Virus record (IMG/VR): IMGVR_UViG_3300005527_000046 | Span: 1-64,000 of that record | Origin: a virus | Lineage: Duplodnaviria > Heunggongvirae > Uroviricota > Caudoviricetes | DNA: 64,000 nucleotides | Direction: 5' to 3' (one strand) | Position numbers and translations under genes: made by a program | The notes under the pieces: generated by a model | Told to the model about the DNA's origin: nothing | The model's database searches: none | The model's input: only the letters and a program-made list of their open reading frames with translations | Shown here: positions 5,093 through 11,935 of the stretch, in pieces | Layout of the letters: the number at the start of each line of letters is the position of its first letter | Numbering within the stretch: position 1 is the first letter of the stretch

Positions 5093-5103
5093 ATAATATT
5101 AAC

Positions 5104-5132
5104 TTGACAAACATATTACTTTAATGTATTAT
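5104..5132 (+). promoter_or_regulatory. sigma70-like promoter (TTGACA-17-TATTAT) upstream of tRNA-like element
   Basis: TTGACA 5104-5109, 17-nt spacer, TATTAT 5127-5132; the -35 box is the palindromic partner of the minus-strand -35 (ACTTGTCAA...ACTTGACAA). Confidence 0.45.
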
Positions 5133-5142
5133 ATTAAAATAT

Positions 5143-5217
5143 GGCGGGGTGTGGTAGTAGTAACCAATCACTCTCATAAGGTGAAATCAAGGCAGTGTGC
5201 AAATCCTGCCCCCGCAA
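5143..5217 (+). tRNA. initiator-tRNA-Met-like element (anticodon loop CTCATAA, CAU) with degenerate T-arm
   Basis: Acceptor GGCGGGG...CCCCGCA-A with a 1:72 mismatch as in bacterial tRNA-fMet; D-arm TGGT/ACCA; anticodon stem TCACT/GGTGA; T-stem does not pair canonically. Confidence 0.35.
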
Positions 5218-5253
5218 TTTAACTATATTACTAATATTAATTTAGTTATTCTT

Positions 5254-5347
5254 AGTAAGATGTGGTAGTAGAATATGTAGTAATACATTAACCAGTCTCC
5301 GCTTATATTGGAGAGATCAAGGCATGGTGCAAATCCTGTTCTTACAA
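5254..5347 (+). tRNA. paralogous tRNA-like element (shares TGGTAGTAG and ATCAAGGCA..GTGCAAATCCTG with 5143..5217); possible UAU anticodon loop CTTATAT; enlarged D-loop
   Basis: Acceptor AGTAAGA/TCTTACA with 1:72 mismatch; hairpin CTCCG-CTTATAT-TGGAG. Confidence 0.25.
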
Positions 5348-5559
5348 TTAACTATAGTAAAATATAGTTAAACTTATACTTAATAAATTATGGCTAAATG
5401 AGATTTATACTGCTATTAGAAATAATAATGAGGCCAAATCTCTTTTTTATTAGGTATATTTAATATTATTACTGAACCTATAATTTATAGATACTTGGGA
5501 GAAGAACCCATGTAGGAAACATTAGTTGTCTATAATGTGTAATAATATAAAACATATAA

Positions 5560-5665
5560 ATAAAGTTGACTGAGTTTGGTTGAAAGTTGATACTAACTAG
5601 ATTGCTTAAGTGAGGTTAGATACTCTATACTTAAGCAACCAAGGGTTCAAATCCCTTACTTTATT
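5560..5665 (+). tRNA. long tRNA-like gene (perfect 7-bp acceptor ATAAAGT/ACTTTAT, canonical T-arm AAGGG-TTCAAAT-CCCTT) with extra 10-bp hairpin in the anticodon/variable region
   Basis: Canonical T-arm and acceptor pairing; about 106 nt so it contains an insertion or long arm; anticodon not assignable by hand. Confidence 0.35.
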
Positions 5666-6195
5666 TATATAAAAATATCTTTATCAGATCCAACGCTAGT
5701 GCAAGACTAGGGGTTTAGTAAAGTGGATGGTTTACTTGTAATTTGTCAGCCATAAAGTCCGGCCCTATTGGTATAAAGATATATGAAGTACAGCAAAGGT
5801 TTAGGGTTTTAACAAAGTATATTTGTGGCCTGTTAATGTGATGGCTGGAACTTCTAAAACTAGAACCTATAAAGAATAGGAACAGCTATTAGATGGTGAA
5901 CTTGGCAAGCCTTTTGTATTTAAACAGAATAAAACTGTTTGTAATGCAGAAGAAAGATTTACATCTGTTTGGAATTATTAATATATGGACCCAATCTCTA
6001 TAGGAGTTGCTATGTTTATTGGTTGTTTGTTTTTTAAAACACAGCAAGATATGTTTATTGAGGAACAAAAGAAGTCTGCTTCTAAACCACAACAACAGAC
6101 TTCTTCTCAACAACAAAGAAAACCACCACAAACAAATAAGACTATTACTAAATGTCCTCATTGTGGTGGTAGTTTAGATAATGAAAAAGATTAAT

Positions 6196-6738
6196 TTAAG
6201 GGCTTAGTTTTTTAAGATATTTGGCTACTGTTTTATCTGAAACACCTAAATATTCTGCAACTGCTAATTTAGTTTTTAATTTAGAATATAAATCTAATAA
6301 ATCAATAGATTCCCAATCTAATTTCTTTTTACTTTGTTGAGAACATTTTGTAGAACAATATTTATGAGATTTTAATTTTGTATTATTACATAAAGGACAT
6401 TTATCATAATATTGCTTAAACTTATAATCCGCAAATTCTTCATTGAATGAAGTAAATATATTAGGTAAAATAGCTTTATCATTATGTATTTCTCTATGAC
6501 AATTAGAACAAAGCAATATGCATTTTCTAAGTTCTTTTATAACTGTTTCCCAGGAACCACAGTTTGCTCTAAGTTTACTTAAACTATGTTCTTTTTCATT
6601 TGGATCTATATGATGTAATTCTAAAGCCTCATGACATTTATTGTAACTACATATTTGACAACAGCCTCCCATAGATTCTACAATTCTAGATTTAGAATTC
6701 TTTCTCCAGTTTTTTACTTGTTCAGATTTTATAGTCAT
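6196..6738 (-). CDS. HNH homing endonuclease with C-terminal HTH
   Basis: Motifs GGCCQIC...HHID...N...LLCSNCHREIH; C-terminal LAVAEYLGVSDKTVAKYLKKL helix-turn-helix; opposite strand to neighbours, inside the tRNA island. Confidence 0.65.
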   Translation of the reverse strand: MTIKSEQVKNWRKNSKSRIVESMGGCCQICSYNKCHEALELHHIDPNEKEHSLSKLRANCGSWETVIKELRKCILLCSNCHREIHNDKAILPNIFTSFNEEFADYKFKQYYDKCPLCNNTKLKSHKYCSTKCSQQSKKKLDWESIDLLDLYSKLKTKLAVAEYLGVSDKTVAKYLKKLSP

Positions 6739-6815
6739 ATATTTATCTGTACTTGTATTAATACAATAACAAATAATGTTATTAAAATGTATTCAGATTC
6801 ATATAATACAAATCT

Positions 6816-6844
6816 TTGACAAGTGTTTATTATTAATATATAAT
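6816..6844 (+). promoter_or_regulatory. sigma70-like promoter TTGACA-17-TATAAT upstream of the tRNA at 6862
   Basis: TTGACA 6816-6821, 17-nt spacer, TATAAT 6839-6844. Confidence 0.5.
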
Positions 6845-6861
6845 AAACACTATAAATATAA

Positions 6862-10030: not shown

Positions 10031-10063
10031 TTTTTTATTTAAATAAATAAGAATAAATTTAAT

Positions 10064-10378
10064 ATGATTGTAAAGACATTTGAACAAGAATTAAAAGATC
10101 TTCTTGCTAGATATATAGCTAGAATAGTATTTGAATATGATGTTAATTATAAGTATCACAATGTTAAAGTGATTAATGATAATGAAGAAGTATTATTTGA
10201 ATCTGAGAACTCAAAAGAAAGAATTACTATATTTAATGATATTGATATAAAAGATTATACAGACAAAGAAAAAGAAGTTATATTAAAAGACTTTAGTAAT
10301 AAGCTATTATCTAATATAAAGGATATTCCACCTGAATTTGCTAAAATACTTTATGATAACTTTTGGGAATTAATATGA
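10064..10378 (+). CDS. hypothetical protein
   Basis: ORF track. Confidence 0.45.
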   Translation: MIVKTFEQELKDLLARYIARIVFEYDVNYKYHNVKVINDNEEVLFESENSKERITIFNDIDIKDYTDKEKEVILKDFSNKLLSNIKDIPPEFAKILYDNFWELI

Positions 10379-10854
10379 CAACATTTACACTTATAGCCTA
10401 TAGACCTAATCATAATTCTTGGGATGAATATAATGATTCTTCTAATTCTGATTTACAAATAAATATATCTGAATCATTAGATGAAATTGTTAAGCATATT
10501 GTTAATTATGAATTTAGTACTGAATGTAGAAAATATAATTATAGATATGATGATTGGGAATTAACTTTACTTATAGATGGTAAAGAAGAATATTGGGATG
10601 AAGAAGATGAGACTAATATTCAACATATGGCTCTTAGAGAAATATGTAATGATAAAGTTGCAGAAGGGATTGCTGCTACAAAACAACAAATAATAGAAAA
10701 CAAAAGAAAGGCCGAAGAACAAAGAATTATAAATGAACAGAGAAGAGCTGAAGAACAGAGGCTTTTACAAATTCAAATACAAGAAGAGAATAAAAGAAAA
10801 GAGTATGAGCTGTTTTTAAAGCTAAAAGAGAAATATAAAGATGTTAATTCCTAA
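10363..10854 (+). CDS. hypothetical protein with C-terminal K/R/E/Q-rich repeat (RKAEEQRIINEQRRAEEQRLLQIQIQEENKRKE)
   Basis: ORF track; overlaps neighbours. Confidence 0.45.
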   Translation: MGINMTTFTLIAYRPNHNSWDEYNDSSNSDLQINISESLDEIVKHIVNYEFSTECRKYNYRYDDWELTLLIDGKEEYWDEEDETNIQHMALREICNDKVAEGIAATKQQIIENKRKAEEQRIINEQRRAEEQRLLQIQIQEENKRKEYELFLKLKEKYKDVNS

Positions 10855-11068
10855 TGAAACTATAAGAAGATATATTAATATTAATAAAGGCGTTGTTAAT
10901 GCTAAAAGAGATAGAGTTTATATATTTATAAATGGTGTGCCAATTGGCACAGTTATAAATCATTCAATTGAAGAAGTATTTGAGCCTATATATAATACTA
11001 AGTTAGTCTGGAAGGTTAAAGTTGAAAAGTGGGCAAATGATGCAACTTTAAGAATTACATTAAAATAA
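10841..11068 (+). CDS. hypothetical protein
   Basis: ORF track. Confidence 0.4.
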   Translation: MLIPNETIRRYININKGVVNAKRDRVYIFINGVPIGTVINHSIEEVFEPIYNTKLVWKVKVEKWANDATLRITLK

Positions 11069-11114
11069 TTAATTGACTTAGTTTATTATATATGCTATAA
11101 GTAATATAATATTT

Positions 11115-11185
11115 GCGGGTGTAATTTAATGGTAAAATTATGGACTTCCACTCCATTTTTGCAAGTTCAAGTCTTGTCATCCGCT
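11115..11185 (+). tRNA. tRNA-Gly (anticodon UCC)
   Basis: Acceptor GCGGGTG/CATCCGC, D-arm ATTT-AATGGTA-AAAT, anticodon stem ATGGA/TCCAT with loop CTTCCAC, T-arm GCAAG-TTCAAGT-CTTGT, discriminator T. Confidence 0.75.
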
Positions 11186-11187
11186 TA

Positions 11188-11278
11188 GGAGTTATGTACT
11201 CATGTATCTTGTAACTCAGTGGGTAGAGGAAATTGTGTCAATAGTTCAAGTCTCTTCATTATACATATACATAACTCC
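11188..11278 (+). ncRNA. tRNA-like structured element (9-bp closing stem GGAGTTATG/CATAACTCC enclosing a canonical D-arm sequence AACTCAGTGGGTAGAGG and a TTCAAGT T-loop-like motif)
   Basis: Sequence features only; could not be folded into a canonical cloverleaf by hand. Confidence 0.25.
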
Positions 11279-11311
11279 ATAATTATATTATTTAGAAATA
11301 AGTAATATAAT

Positions 11312-11396
11312 GGAAGGCTGACCGAGTGGACTATGGTGCTTGTCTTGAAAACAAGTAAAGGTAAAACTTTCTAGGGTTCAAATCCCTAGCCTTCCT
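11312..11396 (+). tRNA. tRNA-Ser (anticodon UGA), class II
   Basis: Acceptor GGAAGGC/GCCTTCC, D-arm ACC-GAGTGGACTAT-GGT, anticodon stem CTTGT/ACAAG with loop CTTGAAA, 16-nt variable arm with AAAG/CTTT stem, T-arm TAGGG-TTCAAAT-CCCTA. Confidence 0.8.
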
Positions 11397-11847
11397 TTTT
11401 TTAAGTTGTAGAGATATGGCTGAGTGGCTGAGGTTCTTAATGTATAATTAAGGTTATATATAATAAAAATCTTAACTCAATGTCTAATAGAAAAACCTAA
11501 TACTGTTTGCAGTATGTGTAATACTGCAATTTACAGAAGACCATCATCCTTAATTAATTCAGAAGGTAAAGCTTATTGTAGCAGAGAATGTTATGGTAAA
11601 TCTTGTCAAAAAGATAGTATTTTGTATTGTATGTAATAAAGAAATGCTTTCTAGTAAACATTCAAAAACTTGTTCTAAAGAATGTTTTAATATATCTCTT
11701 GCAGATCCCAATAGAAAGTTTTGCAAAGGAAGAAAGCCATATGCTTCAAATAAATATGGAAGTCGTTCTTTTAAGTATGCTTTTGTCATATTATTTGAAC
11801 CATTGCTTTATATTATATTATAAATAGGTTCAATTATAAAACTTTAA

Positions 11848-11901
11848 ACCTCTAAGTTTTATAGTTTTTGGTTATCACTAGTTCAAATCTAGTTAGAGGT
11901 A
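11848..11901 (+). ncRNA. tRNA-derived minihelix-like element (acceptor ACCTCTA/TAGAGGT plus T-arm ACTAG-TTCAAAT-CTAGT, no D or anticodon arms)
   Basis: Perfect 7-bp acceptor pairing and canonical T-arm separated from the 5' strand by only about 21 nt. Confidence 0.3.
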
Positions 11902-11935
11902 CTCATTACATATATAACTTTATACAATAATTAAG

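Follow-up and report, generated by a model that had tools for sequence, protein, structure and literature searches.

Introns in tRNA genes have been reported for the Lak-A1, Lak-A2 and Lak-C1 genomes, and the cultured Agrobacterium phage Atu_ph07 was published with tRNAs for all amino acids but Asn and Thr (PMC6102473). We find that Atu_ph07 does carry genes for exactly these two tRNAs, each interrupted at the same 35|36 position by a differently shaped insert, and that a design in which one tRNA is nested within another occurs in this phage, in unrelated metagenomic phage contigs and in the DNA described here. This window comprises the first 64,000 nucleotides of the IMG/VR record IMGVR_UViG_3300005527_000046. 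Read from its sequence, the tRNA island of this jumbo phage is a cluster in flux, with ordinary, decayed and remodelled tRNA genes and one that is split.

Content of the tRNA island

The canonical tRNAs and intact HNH genes of the island are as follows.

4176..4249, plus strand: canonical tRNA-Pro(UGG) (ARAGORN; Rfam, 59 bits)
4301..5032, minus strand: free-standing HNH homing endonuclease gene (weak Pfam HNH match; PHROG HNH, 3.5e-45)
6196..6738, minus strand: free-standing HNH endonuclease gene just upstream of the split tRNA (PHROG HNH, 1.2e-31)
7451..7523, plus strand: canonical tRNA-Gln(UUG) (ARAGORN; Rfam)
11115..11185, plus strand: canonical tRNA-Gly(UCC) (ARAGORN; Rfam)
11312..11396, plus strand: canonical tRNA-Ser(UGA) (ARAGORN; Rfam)

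ARAGORN calls exactly the four tRNAs that a first-pass annotation of this DNA had described as clean (Pro, Gln, Gly and Ser), and the two HNH genes lie within the island as that annotation had placed them; the gene at 6196 is absent from the corresponding site in the L008 and L132 sequences compared. The Rfam tRNA model adds 9855-9938 at 29.9 bits, barely above threshold, with sub-threshold partial matches at 5610-5665 and 11848-11901. Allowing at most one mismatch, the T-loop motif GGTTCRANNCC is found at 17 places in the window, where 5.3 +/- 2.4 would be expected; 10 of these lie on the plus strand between 4228 and 11385.

Seven further elements had been flagged as atypical and tRNA-like. 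All seven are present where they had been placed, and none is resolved by ARAGORN or Rfam as an ordinary tRNA, although several of their structural details are corrected below and three elements had been missed (6897-6960 within 6862-6998; 9969-10031; 7079-7239). The elements are truly atypical, but the single label spans three classes. By alignment, the first is made up of deletion remnants of ordinary tRNA genes, of which relatives still have intact copies (11409, 11848, 9969 and probably 9855). The second consists of conserved and structurally supported noncanonical tRNAs or tRNA-shaped RNAs (5143, 5254, 5560 and 11188), which relatives retain and in which some stems at least show compensatory changes. 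Nothing else in the island is as informative as the third, the tRNA gene at 6862-6998 that a tRNA-shaped intron divides.

A tRNA-Asn gene split by a tRNA-shaped insert

6862..6896, plus strand: tRNA-Asn(GUU) 5' exon, with acceptor, D arm, 5' strand of the anticodon stem and loop bases C32-U35 (ARAGORN intron mode; covariation)
6897..6960, plus strand: tRNA-shaped intron or handle, 64 nt (Rfam tRNA match of 43.1 bits that lacks the anticodon loop; conservation)
6961..6998, plus strand: tRNA-Asn(GUU) 3' exon, with U36-A38, 3' strand of the anticodon stem, variable loop, T arm, 3' strand of the acceptor and discriminator G (insert removal and ARAGORN; cyanophage match)

In intron mode ARAGORN reports 6862-6998 as a tRNA whose U35 and U36 are separated by 64 nt, and deletion of 6897-6960 leaves a 73-nt tRNA-Asn(GTT). 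The 5' exon agrees at 97-100% with tRNA-Asn genes annotated in phages, and the 3' exon matches a cyanophage tRNA-Asn at 93.5%. From these predictions and exon matches we conclude that 6862-6998 is a genuine split tRNA-Asn(GUU) gene. The insert has a 7-bp acceptor, a D arm, a T arm and a discriminator U, and a 4-bp stem with the tetraloop TTAA takes the place of the anticodon arm; it has neither an anticodon nor a CCA.

The split gene, together with 5254, 7079-7239 and 11188, is kept in relatives that are only 65-77% identical at the protein level, and the inner unit is conserved with compensatory changes in both L008 and L132. In an alignment of the window with these two sequences, 98.4% of cells in the nested design are paired and both sides have changed in 15 of 41 pairs, a count reached by 0 of 500 shuffles and compared with at most 4 in slid controls. 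When nine distinct nested units are aligned, 97.5% of cells are paired and both sides have changed in 32 of the 41 pairs. Since the design is kept and its pairs covary in these comparisons, the outer and inner cloverleaves are, on comparative evidence, both under selection.

Boundaries of the insert in other phages

In all tRNA-shaped cases the insert starts with the opening base of its own acceptor helix, directly after a U. This opening base is G except in Atu_ph07, which has an unpaired A there. The 3' end is N73 in the lineage whose tRNA genes do not encode CCA (the window, L008 and L132) and three bases past N73 in the other lineages, these bases being CCA where the outer tRNA also ends in CCA, CCC in L036 and AAG in Atu_ph07. 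Removal of the insert restores a 7-nt loop in every case. The anticodon arm of the insert is reduced to a tetraloop in the window and to loops of about 3-5 nt in L260, L309, L315 and L294; it is missing altogether in L307, and Atu_ph07 has only a minihelix. Because this arm is dispensable, the insert is a handle and not a decoder. The inner unit is a genuine tRNA in L001 (Gly) and L036 (Phe), and the inserts of L071, L099 and L123 have an extra 5' hairpin before the tRNA-like module. The permuted two-piece tmRNA of the phage described here offers a likeness, with a tRNA-Trp nested in its intervening segment; in both, a tRNA-shaped unit would act as an excisable spacer.

A proposed route of excision and ligation

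The arrangement of the gene indicates that the insert must probably be cut out and the exons re-ligated. As the best explanation, to which we assign a little less than an even chance, we tentatively propose that the insert is excised by host RNase P and RNase Z and the tRNA sealed by a phage RNA ligase. The precursor would fold as a cloverleaf within a cloverleaf. Host RNase P would cut at the 5' end of the inner acceptor (U-1/G+1), leaving an Asn 5' half that ends in U35 with a 3'-OH, and host RNase Z would cut after the inner discriminator, leaving a 3' half that starts at U36 with a 5'-phosphate. Pairing in the outer acceptor and anticodon stems would keep the two halves together for the ligase to seal, giving the normal 7-nt loop CUGUUAA. 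If spliced, a tRNA-shaped insert in the anticodon of a tRNA would represent a kind of tRNA splicing not yet explained. The 'missing' Asn and Thr tRNAs of Atu_ph07 are its interrupted genes.

Some features fit RNase P and RNase Z less readily. CCA-type inserts would need a 3' cut after CCA, and cutting there is a property of only some RNase Z enzymes (Thermotoga-type). The extra 5' hairpins of L071, L099 and L123 would not be precisely removable by the two enzymes alone, and the Thr insert of Atu_ph07 is only a 9-bp hairpin. In the precursor the bases around both cut sites can pair (U33-A37, G34.U36), which may hinder RNase P.

Candidates for the sealing step would be a PF09414 ligase of 221 aa, whose gene lies some 5 kb upstream of the window, or the ligase domain of Pnkp with Hen1, which, if involved, would place a 2'-O-methyl on U35 and render the junction cleavage-resistant.

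24904..24993, plus strand: detached first 29 codons of pnkp, then a stop codon (translation and sequence)
25049..26005, plus strand: LAGLIDADG homing endonuclease ORF between the two pnkp parts (Pfam LAGLIDADG_3, 1.4e-14)
26286..28628, plus strand: Pnkp (Pfam PNKP_ligase, 2.6e-25, and Metallophos, 6.6e-11; top PDB match 4XRU, the Rnl of the Pnkp1-Rnl-Hen1 complex, 4.6e-44)
29200..30408, plus strand: Hen1, N-terminal and 2'-O-methyltransferase domains (Pfam Hen1_N, 1.9e-27; PDB 4XRP_C, 6e-21)

The detached pnkp fragment covers the kinase P-loop region, which reads GPSNCGST and has no Walker lysine, and the main ORF encodes the remainder of the kinase domain together with metallophosphoesterase and RNA ligase domains, the latter containing KYMGS. 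The lost lysine and the detachment of this kinase part fit substrates that already bear a 5'-phosphate. Both Pnkp and Hen1 score far under the NCBIfam equivalog cut-offs. Among 50,697 isolate phage records, homologues of Hen1 occur in only 5 and homologues of the PF09414 ligase in only 31, including Atu_ph07, Lak-A1, Lak-A2 and Lak-C1; in L071 and L294, PF09414 ligases lie about 3-4 kb or less from the interrupted tRNAs. Jumbo genome size and an abundance of tRNAs confound this association of ligases with interrupted tRNAs. Furthermore, the ligases are not specific to a splicing role, because XacN1 has Pnkp, Hen1 and the PF09414 ligase, yet no nested tRNA was found in the scanned 29-50 kb of its tRNA array.

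Healing and sealing of 2',3'-cyclic phosphate and 5'-OH ends is the known job of Pnkp/Hen1, and the presence of the pair in the window suggests a different removal of the insert, which we consider unlikely. A phage or host endonuclease, or self-cleavage of the RNA, would generate such ends, and Pnkp/Hen1 or host RtcB would heal and seal them as in anticodon-nuclease repair. This would accommodate the dissimilar inserts at an identical position in the Asn and Thr genes of Atu_ph07, and the extra hairpins of some inserts that are beyond the reach of RNase P and Z. However, no family of ribozymes or group I introns matched the region, even with E values up to 10, and a comparison of about 40 window ORFs with Pfam found no splicing-endonuclease or RNase Z-type domain. 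Healing of the 5'-OH by Pnkp also looks impaired, because its P-loop is without the lysine and separated from the rest of the gene. Moreover, cleavage of this kind leaves unexplained why the insert ends coincide with tRNA +1 and N73 (or three bases later) across independent lineages.

It is somewhat less probable again that there is no splicing, and that the locus is a processing cassette freeing the inner tRNA-shaped RNA, the Asn halves or both, for example as regulators or as decoys for anticodon nucleases or tRNA-binding defence proteins. Conservation and covariation of the inner unit itself, the genuine inner tRNAs of L001 and L036, and the presence in the island of further conserved RNAs of tRNA shape that have no evident part in decoding (7079-7239 and 11188-11278) are consistent with such a cassette. 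Against it, the outer tRNA is retained in full, with compensatory changes: the D arm, the T arm, the AsnRS-type U1-A72/G73 and an exact GU|U anticodon that gives a 7-nt loop on removal of the insert. Such retention is difficult to account for if no intact tRNA-Asn is produced. Without splicing, Atu_ph07 would also lack precisely Asn and Thr among the 20 amino acids.

Conserved noncanonical tRNAs and tRNA-shaped RNAs

5143..5217, plus strand: noncanonical tRNA with anticodon loop CTCATAA (CAU; Met or Ile2) (one-base deletion and ARAGORN; copy in L006)
5254..5348, plus strand: paralogue of 5143, tRNA-Ile(UAU) (removal of D-loop hairpin and ARAGORN; covariation)
5560..5665, plus strand: class-II-shaped tRNA-like RNA, 106 nt (Rfam partial match, 20.7 bits; conservation)
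7079..7239, plus strand: tRNA-ended RNA of about 160 nt (conservation in L008 and L132; RNAalifold)
11188..11278, plus strand: tRNA-derived element without an anticodon arm (conservation; paired closing helix)

The elements at 5143 and 5254 had been described as paralogous and initiator-Met-like, with 1:72 mismatches and odd T arms. They are paralogues, but their anticodon stems do not have the run of three G-C pairs and they are not initiator-like; the oddity of the T arm comes down to a 5-bp stem in which a single U is bulged and a loop of 7 nt, TGCAAAT. The mismatch is found in 5143 as G1.A72, together with a D loop, AGTAGTA, that has no GG. The 5143 element is unseen by ARAGORN and Rfam, is called tRNA-Met(CAT) by ARAGORN once the single base 5196 is removed, and has a copy in L006 that is 98.7% identical. 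The D loop of 5254 contains a hairpin of 13-19 nt, capped by GTAA here and GTGA in L132, whose removal yields an ARAGORN tRNA-Ile(TAT). This element is conserved in L006, L008 and L132, with the anticodon UAU in this phage and CAU in the relatives; 94.2% of its cloverleaf is paired, with both-side changes in 10 of 25 pairs (reached by 0 of 500 shuffles).

The 10-bp extra hairpin ascribed to 5560 occupies the position of a very long variable arm. In this RNA the acceptor is 7 bp long and the D arm is of Ser/Leu type; the other parts are a 31-nt variable arm whose stem covaries, a canonical T arm and a weak anticodon arm (TGATA-CTAACTA-GATTG) with a conserved AAC. It is accepted by ARAGORN after the variable arm is shortened, and is kept in L008 and L006 and absent from L132.

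At 11188, a 10-nt linker joins a D arm (ACTC AGTGGGTA GAGG) to a T arm (AATAG TTCAAGT CTCTT). A long helix closes the element, which is conserved in L006, L009 and L132. The helix that had been noted as closing this element varies in sequence and keeps its pairing, from GGAGTTATGTA../..TACATAACTCC in this phage to GGTCATATATGTAT/ATACATATATGACC in L009 and GGCTATGTATATAT/ATATATACATAGCC in L132. The RNA at 7079..7239 is conserved at 92-96% in L008 and L132. It has a tRNA-type acceptor stem (ATAGTAG/CTACTAT), a D arm, a short variable hairpin and a T arm (TAGGG TTAAATT CCCTA), and an 11-bp helix replaces the anticodon loop and leads to a junction with further hairpins. RNAalifold gives 48 pairs, 4 with compensatory changes, including pairs of the acceptor and T stems; no single deletion turns this RNA into a tRNA.

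Decayed genes

9855..9938, plus strand: tRNA-Tyr(GUA) homologue (Rfam, 29.9 bits; alignment with canonical Tyr of L008 and L009)
9969..10031, plus strand: tRNA-Thr(UGU) without a T arm (Rfam, 46.3 bits, with the T loop missing; alignment)
11409..11429, plus strand: what is left of the 5' part of tRNA-Ser(GGA) after loss of about 107 nt (aligned with L006 12314-12398 and L009)
11480..11826, plus strand: decayed HNH gene (alignment with L006 12490-12990; Pfam HNH on the L006 gene)
11848..11902, plus strand: remnant of tRNA-Met(CAU) (alignment with L006 13141-13216 and L009 6280-6355; Rfam, 22.5 bits)

That every atypical element, the split Asn gene included, is debris from homing-endonuclease traffic, deletions and chance insertion of tRNA into tRNA is very improbable: the island does hold fresh debris (the Thr gene, the Ser(GGA) and Met(CAU) remnants and the decayed HNH gene), two intact HNH genes and a 9855 element with extra damaging changes in this phage, but the split Asn gene, 5254, 7079-7239 and 11188 are retained with compensatory substitutions in the divergent relatives, the nested design and its boundary rule recur in unrelated lineages, and covariation already contradicts decay of the split gene.

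The 9855 element had been assigned a 6-nt anticodon loop; in the register homologous to canonical tRNA-Tyr the loop is 8 nt, with one extra A (CTGTAAAA) above a mismatched anticodon stem. Removal of one A gives an ARAGORN tRNA-Tyr. The extra-A variant aligns with one in L006, and C56 is changed to U in this phage only; these sequence changes suggest that this is probably a decaying gene. The tRNA-Thr differs by an 11-nt deletion from otherwise identical genes in L006 and L009, and the deletion is also present in the independent assemblies L133 and L134. A 5'-half tRNA fragment had been placed at about 11409-11450; it is a tRNA 5' fragment, but alignment limits the retained part to 11409..11429 and identifies it as the deletion remnant of Ser(GGA). 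Likewise, the acceptor/T-arm minihelix seen at 11848 does retain both arms, but as what deletion left of tRNA-Met(CAU), the D arm and the 5' side of the anticodon being lost relative to L006 and L009. The decayed HNH gene is frameshifted by one extra base and has lost about 150 nt when compared with L006 12490-12990.

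A tRNA-Asn gene interrupted by a tRNA-shaped insert

The most significant feature of the island is a split tRNA-Asn gene, overlooked in the first-pass annotation, whose intron is itself shaped like a tRNA. The interruption was recognized by eye and then by ARAGORN in intron mode.

Components of the split gene
6862-6998: interrupted tRNA-Asn(GUU)
6897-6960: 64-nt insert (inner unit), between U35 and U36

Excision of 6897-6960 leaves a standard 73-nt tRNA, called by ARAGORN as tRNA-Asn(GTT), with U1-A72 and G73. The intron placement chosen by ARAGORN itself gave a Lys(CUU) identity, which is overruled by the tRNA body; we assign the gene to Asn because both exons match annotated phage tRNA-Asn and because U1-A72 and G73 are common to four independent outer tRNAs.

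Syntenic relatives were reached via homologues of the gene at 9160-9846, with protein identities to the window gene of 77% for contig L008, 68% for L132, 66% for L006 and 65% for L009. The insert folds as a tRNA in which a 4-bp stem and a tetraloop replace the anticodon arm; the tetraloop is TTAA in the window, TATG in L008 and, on a different stem, GTCA in L132. The double cloverleaf is recovered by RNAalifold, and in the structure specified for these three sequences 98.4% of cells are paired and both sides have changed in 15 of 41 pairs, a number reached by none of the shuffles, with slid controls giving at most four. The single-sequence MFE fold (z = -2.2) contains the outer acceptor, D, anticodon and T stems together with the inner acceptor and T arm. 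In the consensus structure the outer anticodon stem and the inner acceptor stem meet at a symmetric 4x4 internal loop. In the window, L008 and L132 the 7-bp acceptor of the inner unit stacks on the 5-bp stem of a T arm with a T loop, position -1 is U and position +1 is G, and a U follows the unpaired discriminator. These features of RNase P and RNase Z substrates are alike in at least nine further units.

Archaeal/eukaryal introns and bacterial group I tRNA introns resemble the insert in their anticodon-loop site and in requiring exact removal. Group I introns have a P3-P9 catalytic core and are typically longer than 200 nt; the 64-nt insert is too small for one, and Rfam gave no match at E up to 10. 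The archaeal/eukaryal introns are of the bulge-helix-bulge type, whereas the window junction has no 3-nt bulges spaced by 4 bp at the exon-intron boundaries; a scan of about 40 window ORFs against Pfam found no splicing-endonuclease domain. No support was found for a ribozyme explanation.

Recurrence in other phages

An Asn-specific pattern identified the same nested design in L001 and L003, two unrelated contigs of IMG/VR, and at nine metagenomic loci, which comprise six distinct sequence variants. A covariance model built from three relatives retrieves L001, L003 and the metagenome units at 64-96 bits. Across nine distinct nested units, in an alignment fitted to the covariance model, 97.5% of cells are paired and both sides have changed in 32 of 41 pairs. 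Searched against bacterial and archaeal genomes, the pattern gave no nested Asn gene among the 120 matches listed, every one of them fortuitous or a pair of neighbouring tRNAs, mostly His and Lys; this result says little either way.

A scan of viral contigs for double T loops returned mostly non-nested matches and was convincing only for L036, L071, L099 and L123 (L075 was rejected as unconvincing). The outer tRNA of L036 is Arg(UCU), with a genuine tRNA-Phe inside it, and that of a further contig, L307, is Glu(UUC), with an inner unit that lacks the anticodon arm. L071, L123 and L099 carry Thr and Cys tRNAs with a second type of intron, in which a small hairpin (loop like AGTAAA or AATAAA) is followed by an acceptor/T-arm module.

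Loci with the second intron type
L071 ~3960-4130
L123 (two sites)
L099 ~1530-1700

At two metagenomic loci (L271 421-538 and L305 1180-1297) the anticodon region of a tRNA is interrupted by 45 nt that do not resemble a tRNA. Near the tRNA arrays of two unrelated contigs lies a protein with DUF2828 and DUF7788 (plus VWA) domains (L294 8943-10406, minus strand; L307 818-2338, minus strand).

The 5' exon also matched an unannotated site in a cultured virus, Agrobacterium phage Atu_ph07. Here tRNA-Asn(GUU) is interrupted between CTGT and TAA by a 46-nt acceptor/T-arm minihelix, and tRNA-Thr(UGU), 11 kb away, between TTTG and TAA by a 33-nt hairpin; deletion of either insert gives a clean ARAGORN tRNA.

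Interrupted tRNA genes of Atu_ph07
MF403008.1 c(323904-324023) (L348 23905-24024), minus strand: tRNA-Asn(GUU)
MF403008.1 ~335.1 kb (L348 35106-35214), minus strand: tRNA-Thr(UGU)

The Atu_ph07 genome paper reports Asn and Thr as the only amino acids without a phage tRNA (PMC6102473). Both of these 'missing' tRNAs are present as interrupted genes, which standard annotation misses, and phage tRNA repertoires and codon-usage arguments are therefore undercounted. As Atu_ph07 and its host are both in culture, the ideas developed below are directly testable.

Phage XacN1 (AP018399.1), a second Hen1 phage, showed no nested tRNA on scanning of its tRNA array at 29-50 kb. Its Lys, Gly, Thr, Cys and Asn tRNAs are 86-91 nt in length with class-II-like long variable arms; these long class I tRNAs were considered as intron carriers and rejected, as the variable arms account for the extra length.

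Long tRNAs of XacN1 (AP018399.1)
30565-30651
39053-39138
42569-42659
45202-45290
45979-46067

Insert boundaries and a possible splicing route

The tRNA-shaped and minihelix inserts share a boundary rule. Each begins where its own acceptor helix begins, directly after a U (-1); the opening base is G everywhere except in Atu_ph07, where it is an unpaired A. The 3' end falls at the discriminator in the window lineage, where CCA is not encoded, and three bases later where CCA is encoded, and removal of the insert leaves a 7-nt anticodon loop. Judged by sequence, the ends of the inserts appear to coincide with the tRNA maturation sites of RNase P and RNase Z. After such cuts the 5' exon would end in a 3'-OH and the 3' exon would begin with a 5'-phosphate, and such ends are direct substrates for an RNA ligase.

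We infer that the split tRNA is cleaved and ligated. Host RNase P and RNase Z would excise the tRNA-shaped insert at 6896|6897 and 6960|6961, the ends of the inner unit, and a phage RNA ligase would join the exon halves. We put forward only tentatively, and with some doubt, the broader idea that phages thereby use a third, hitherto undescribed route of tRNA splicing, in which tRNA- or minihelix-shaped introns are excised by host RNase P and RNase Z and the exons are joined by a phage ligase. Two points are caveats on this scheme: a cut after CCA requires a particular kind of 3' endonuclease, and the removal of inserts with an extra 5' hairpin is not explicable by RNase P and RNase Z alone. Repair ligases that sealed mature tRNAs into anticodon loops cut by a nuclease may have given rise to the tRNA-shaped handles.

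If the mechanism is true, bacteria and phages would have a protein-dependent pathway of tRNA splicing made up of the universal tRNA-processing enzymes and an RNA repair ligase, and the phage Rnl and Pnkp/Hen1 proteins, now viewed solely as counter-defence, would have a housekeeping role. Where Hen1 is present, the anticodon junction would be 2'-O-methylated and the phage tRNA resistant from the outset to anticodon nucleases that cut there. The inserts also offer a natural precedent for the use of tRNA-shaped handles as excisable spacers.

Phage tRNA introns have been noted once before, without explanation, and the report in question was the sole match in literature searches for nested or tRNA-like introns. 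The Lak megaphages have 'enigmatic' tRNA introns, which break up the anticodon loops of their tRNA genes (Devoto et al., bioRxiv 10.1101/356790; Nat Microbiol 2019). Like the insert of the split tRNA-Asn, these are phage anticodon-loop inserts of tens of nucleotides and are sometimes themselves tRNA-like, and the PF09414 ligase family of the window phage is present in Lak-A1, Lak-A2 and Lak-C1; the splicing route proposed here would, if true, explain them. The present insert differs in lying within tRNA-Asn, between positions 35 and 36, and in having a tRNA shape that lacks the anticodon loop. The boundary rule, the covariation support, the cultured example and the candidate enzymes are absent from the Lak report and are new here.

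A tRNA fold serves solely as a recognition signal for RNase P and RNase Z in mitochondrial polycistron punctuation, plant mitochondrial t-elements, MALAT1 mascRNA and the tRNA-miRNA units of gammaherpesvirus-68; the anticodon arm is often shortened, for instance in mascRNA, and the two enzymes define the ends of the neighbouring RNAs. The RNAs flanking such signals stay unjoined, whereas the insert studied here is flanked by the halves of a single tRNA, which would need ligation. Ligation of this kind is known from anticodon-loop repair by T4 Pnk and Rnl1 and by bacterial Pnkp/Hen1 and Pnkp1-Rnl-Hen1, where stem-held tRNA halves are sealed and Hen1 methylates the 2'-OH at the junction (PMC4411300, PMC3675462). 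Repair follows ribotoxin damage and involves end healing, whereas the break proposed here would be programmed, with ends that are already 3'-OH and 5'-phosphate, and the kinase P-loop of the window phage is degenerate.

Candidate ligases

Candidate sealing enzymes
26286-28628: Pnkp
29200-30408: Hen1
L343 3716-4381 (another assembly of the window phage), ~5 kb upstream of the window: Rnl2-like RNA ligase PF09414, 221 aa, 78 bits against a cut-off of 27

The ligase domain of Pnkp is recognized by Pfam (PNKP_ligase, 2.6e-25), and its adenylylated lysine motif, KYMGS, aligns to the Rnl of 4XRU. An intact kinase P-loop, GxxxxGK[ST], does not occur in the same polypeptide; the P-loop region lies on a detached ORF of 29 codons (24904-24993) that ends in a stop and reads GPSNCGST, with no Walker lysine. 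A LAGLIDADG homing endonuclease ORF (25049-26005) separates this from the remainder of pnkp, which runs from 26286. The split gene may contain an unrecognised intron or may be truncated; Rfam gave no group I match at this site. Because pnkp is interrupted and the detached P-loop lacks the Walker lysine, a role in sealing fits better than one in healing.

The Hen1 gene lies 571 nt downstream of pnkp. Its product matches Hen1_N (Pfam, 1.9e-27) and methyltransferase domains, and 4XRP_C at 6e-21 over residues 1-370; the Pnkp ligase domain and Hen1 are closest to the 4XRU/4XRP complex. Both proteins fall short of the NCBIfam equivalog cut-offs (TIGR04075, TIGR04074; 149 against 750 bits and 54 against 340 bits), which marks them as divergent relatives and not equivalogs. 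Among 50,697 isolate phage records, just five have Hen1.

No relative of the 221-aa PF09414 ligase in the PDB was detectable by sequence. A protein 95% identical to it is encoded by L006, with LKFDGEN in the region of the KxDG motif. Homologues occur in 31 of the 50,697 phage records, every one at least 235 kb in size; the carriers include Lak-A1, Lak-A2, Lak-C1, Atu_ph07, XacN1 and CcrBL9-like Caulobacter phages, as well as Salicola SCTP-2, RsoM2USA and metagenomic phages of 636-735 kb. The ligase gene of Atu_ph07 lies at 66558-67136. PF09414 ligases are also encoded ~3-4 kb from the interrupted tRNAs of L071 and L294, the latter at 1534-2655 with PHA02142-OB and PF09414 domains. A tblastn search with Pnkp, Hen1 and the ligase against the other interrupted-tRNA loci matched L071 only, in flanks too short for a fair test. 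The association of ligase and interrupted tRNA is confounded with genome size, and XacN1 has the enzymes but no nested tRNA in the scanned part of its array.

A tRNA nested in the probable tmRNA gene

A second tRNA unit appears to be used as an excisable spacer within a structured RNA in the probable tmRNA gene of the same phage, where tRNA-Trp(CCA) lies within the segment that separates the acceptor piece from the coding piece.

The tmRNA locus
L343 7298-7567, upstream of window base 1 by ~1.2-1.45 kb: probable two-piece (permuted) tmRNA gene
L343 7351-7424: nested tRNA-Trp(CCA)

The candidate tmRNA encodes the tag peptide GNVKNNIVSFSKAPVLA (followed by a stop) and keeps G3.U70 (GGGTCTG/CAGATCC). 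ARAGORN makes no call here and Rfam gives 31.8 bits against a threshold of 47, a score that is low because of the inserted tRNA-Trp; the tmRNA of L006, which has only CTCTT at the position of the tRNA, is called by ARAGORN and scores 57.6 bits. Two-piece tmRNA resembles the split tRNA-Asn in that the loss of an intervening segment leaves two pieces that form a single structured RNA. The tmRNA pieces function unligated, whereas a tRNA nicked in the anticodon is not expected to decode.

Other tRNA-like elements of the island

The first-pass annotation had described the island as four clean tRNAs among many atypical tRNA-like elements, with two HNH genes. All four tRNAs were called by ARAGORN and both HNH ORFs were confirmed; the observation of atypical elements was largely right, but a single label proved too coarse for what are in part conserved RNAs and in part decayed genes.

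tRNAs and tRNA-like elements detected by search tools
4176: tRNA-Pro, ARAGORN
7451: tRNA-Gln, ARAGORN
11115: tRNA-Gly, ARAGORN
11312: tRNA-Ser, ARAGORN
6897-6960: Rfam tRNA, 43.1 bits, anticodon loop almost absent and scored as deleted
9969-10031: Rfam tRNA, 46.3 bits, T loop missing and scored as deleted
9855-9938: Rfam tRNA, barely above threshold (29.9 bits) yet with an 8-nt anticodon loop
5610-5665: Rfam tRNA, partial and sub-threshold
11848-11901: Rfam tRNA, partial and sub-threshold (22.5 bits against 29)

Neither ARAGORN nor Rfam RF00005 calls the elements at 5143, 5254, 5560 and 11188. T-loop-like motifs number 17 in the window against 5.3 +/- 2.4 expected, with 10 on the plus strand of the island. 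L133, L134 and L343 are independent assemblies of the window phage, each from another sample. The first two match window 3200-13000 at 99.97-99.99% identity, which indicates that the oddities of the island are not assembly errors.

The elements at 5143-5217 and 5254-5348 are paralogues. Removal of one bulged T-stem U from the first gives an ARAGORN tRNA-Met(CAU), and removal of a D-loop hairpin from the second gives tRNA-Ile(UAU), with anticodon CAU in relatives. Their cloverleaf is 94% paired, and both sides have changed in 10 of 25 pairs. A 10-nt T loop was considered for both and dropped in favour of a bulged 5-bp stem and 7-nt loop; an RNAalifold alternative, GTGG pairing with the 3' strand of the T stem, had one-sided changes as its only support.

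Three further elements keep parts of the tRNA fold. The first, at 5560-5665, has a class-II shape, a conserved CTAACTA loop and a 31-nt variable arm with a covarying stem, and is missing from L132. At 11188-11278 the D and T arms are kept without an anticodon arm, and the long closing helix varies in sequence between relatives while its pairing is maintained. The element at 7079-7239, which had not been flagged, has acceptor, D and T arms of tRNA type, with a large branched domain where the anticodon loop would be. It is not a tmRNA, as position 3:70 is A-U or G-C rather than G.U, and hairpin-loop anticodons in it and in 5560 are ruled out by the lack of conservation among relatives. Our best guess is that all three are tRNA-scaffolded RNAs or processing handles. 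The tRNA cluster of phage T4 includes stable RNAs C and D, non-tRNA species of unknown function whose maturation relies on the tRNA-processing machinery; these offer the closest analogy, and no relationship is implied.

The remaining elements are decayed genes, whose full canonical set is retained in L132. By alignment, 9969-10031 is the tRNA-Thr(UGU) of L006 and L009 minus 11 nt, with the T arm gone and the rest identical, and 11409-11429 is the first ~20 nt of tRNA-Ser(GGA), beyond which ~107 nt are deleted. An HNH gene at 11480-11826 has a frameshift and a deletion of ~150 nt, and 11848-11902 is tRNA-Met(CAU) minus the D arm and the 5' side of the anticodon. The tRNA-Tyr(GUA) homologue at 9855-9938 has one extra loop A and a mismatched stem, a variant common to L006, and a C56 to U change confined to the window phage.

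Two non-coding segments are conserved in relatives at 82-96% and may represent additional small RNAs or sites of regulation: 5350-5466, with a hairpin and a terminator-like stem with a T run, and 7240-7450, with a long imperfect hairpin (CTATGAGT...ACTCTCATAG).

Genome context

The window has a G+C content of ~28%, and the same genes occur on contigs reaching 216-228 kb, which makes the window phage a jumbo phage. Its nearest cultured relative by one conserved protein is Cellulophaga phage phi17:2 (46% identity). Megablast of 4000-12100 against isolate phages matched only a short HNH segment, and the neighbouring SPFH (Band 7) protein retrieved no relatives from viral contigs. Selfish elements are abundant in the genome; the window contains three HNH genes and single NUMOD3 and LAGLIDADG ORFs. 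One window ORF has a weak match to an intein-splicing domain (28.4 bits against a Pfam cut-off of 35.8), and the other window genes include a 3,428-aa ORF, a PARP-like protein, a photolyase and ThyX.

Loci of these further genes
46037-56323, minus strand
57163-59349, minus strand
40980-42164, plus strand
18129-19346, plus strand
L343 1-2098, upstream of the window: ribonucleotide reductase with an intein and LAGLIDADG
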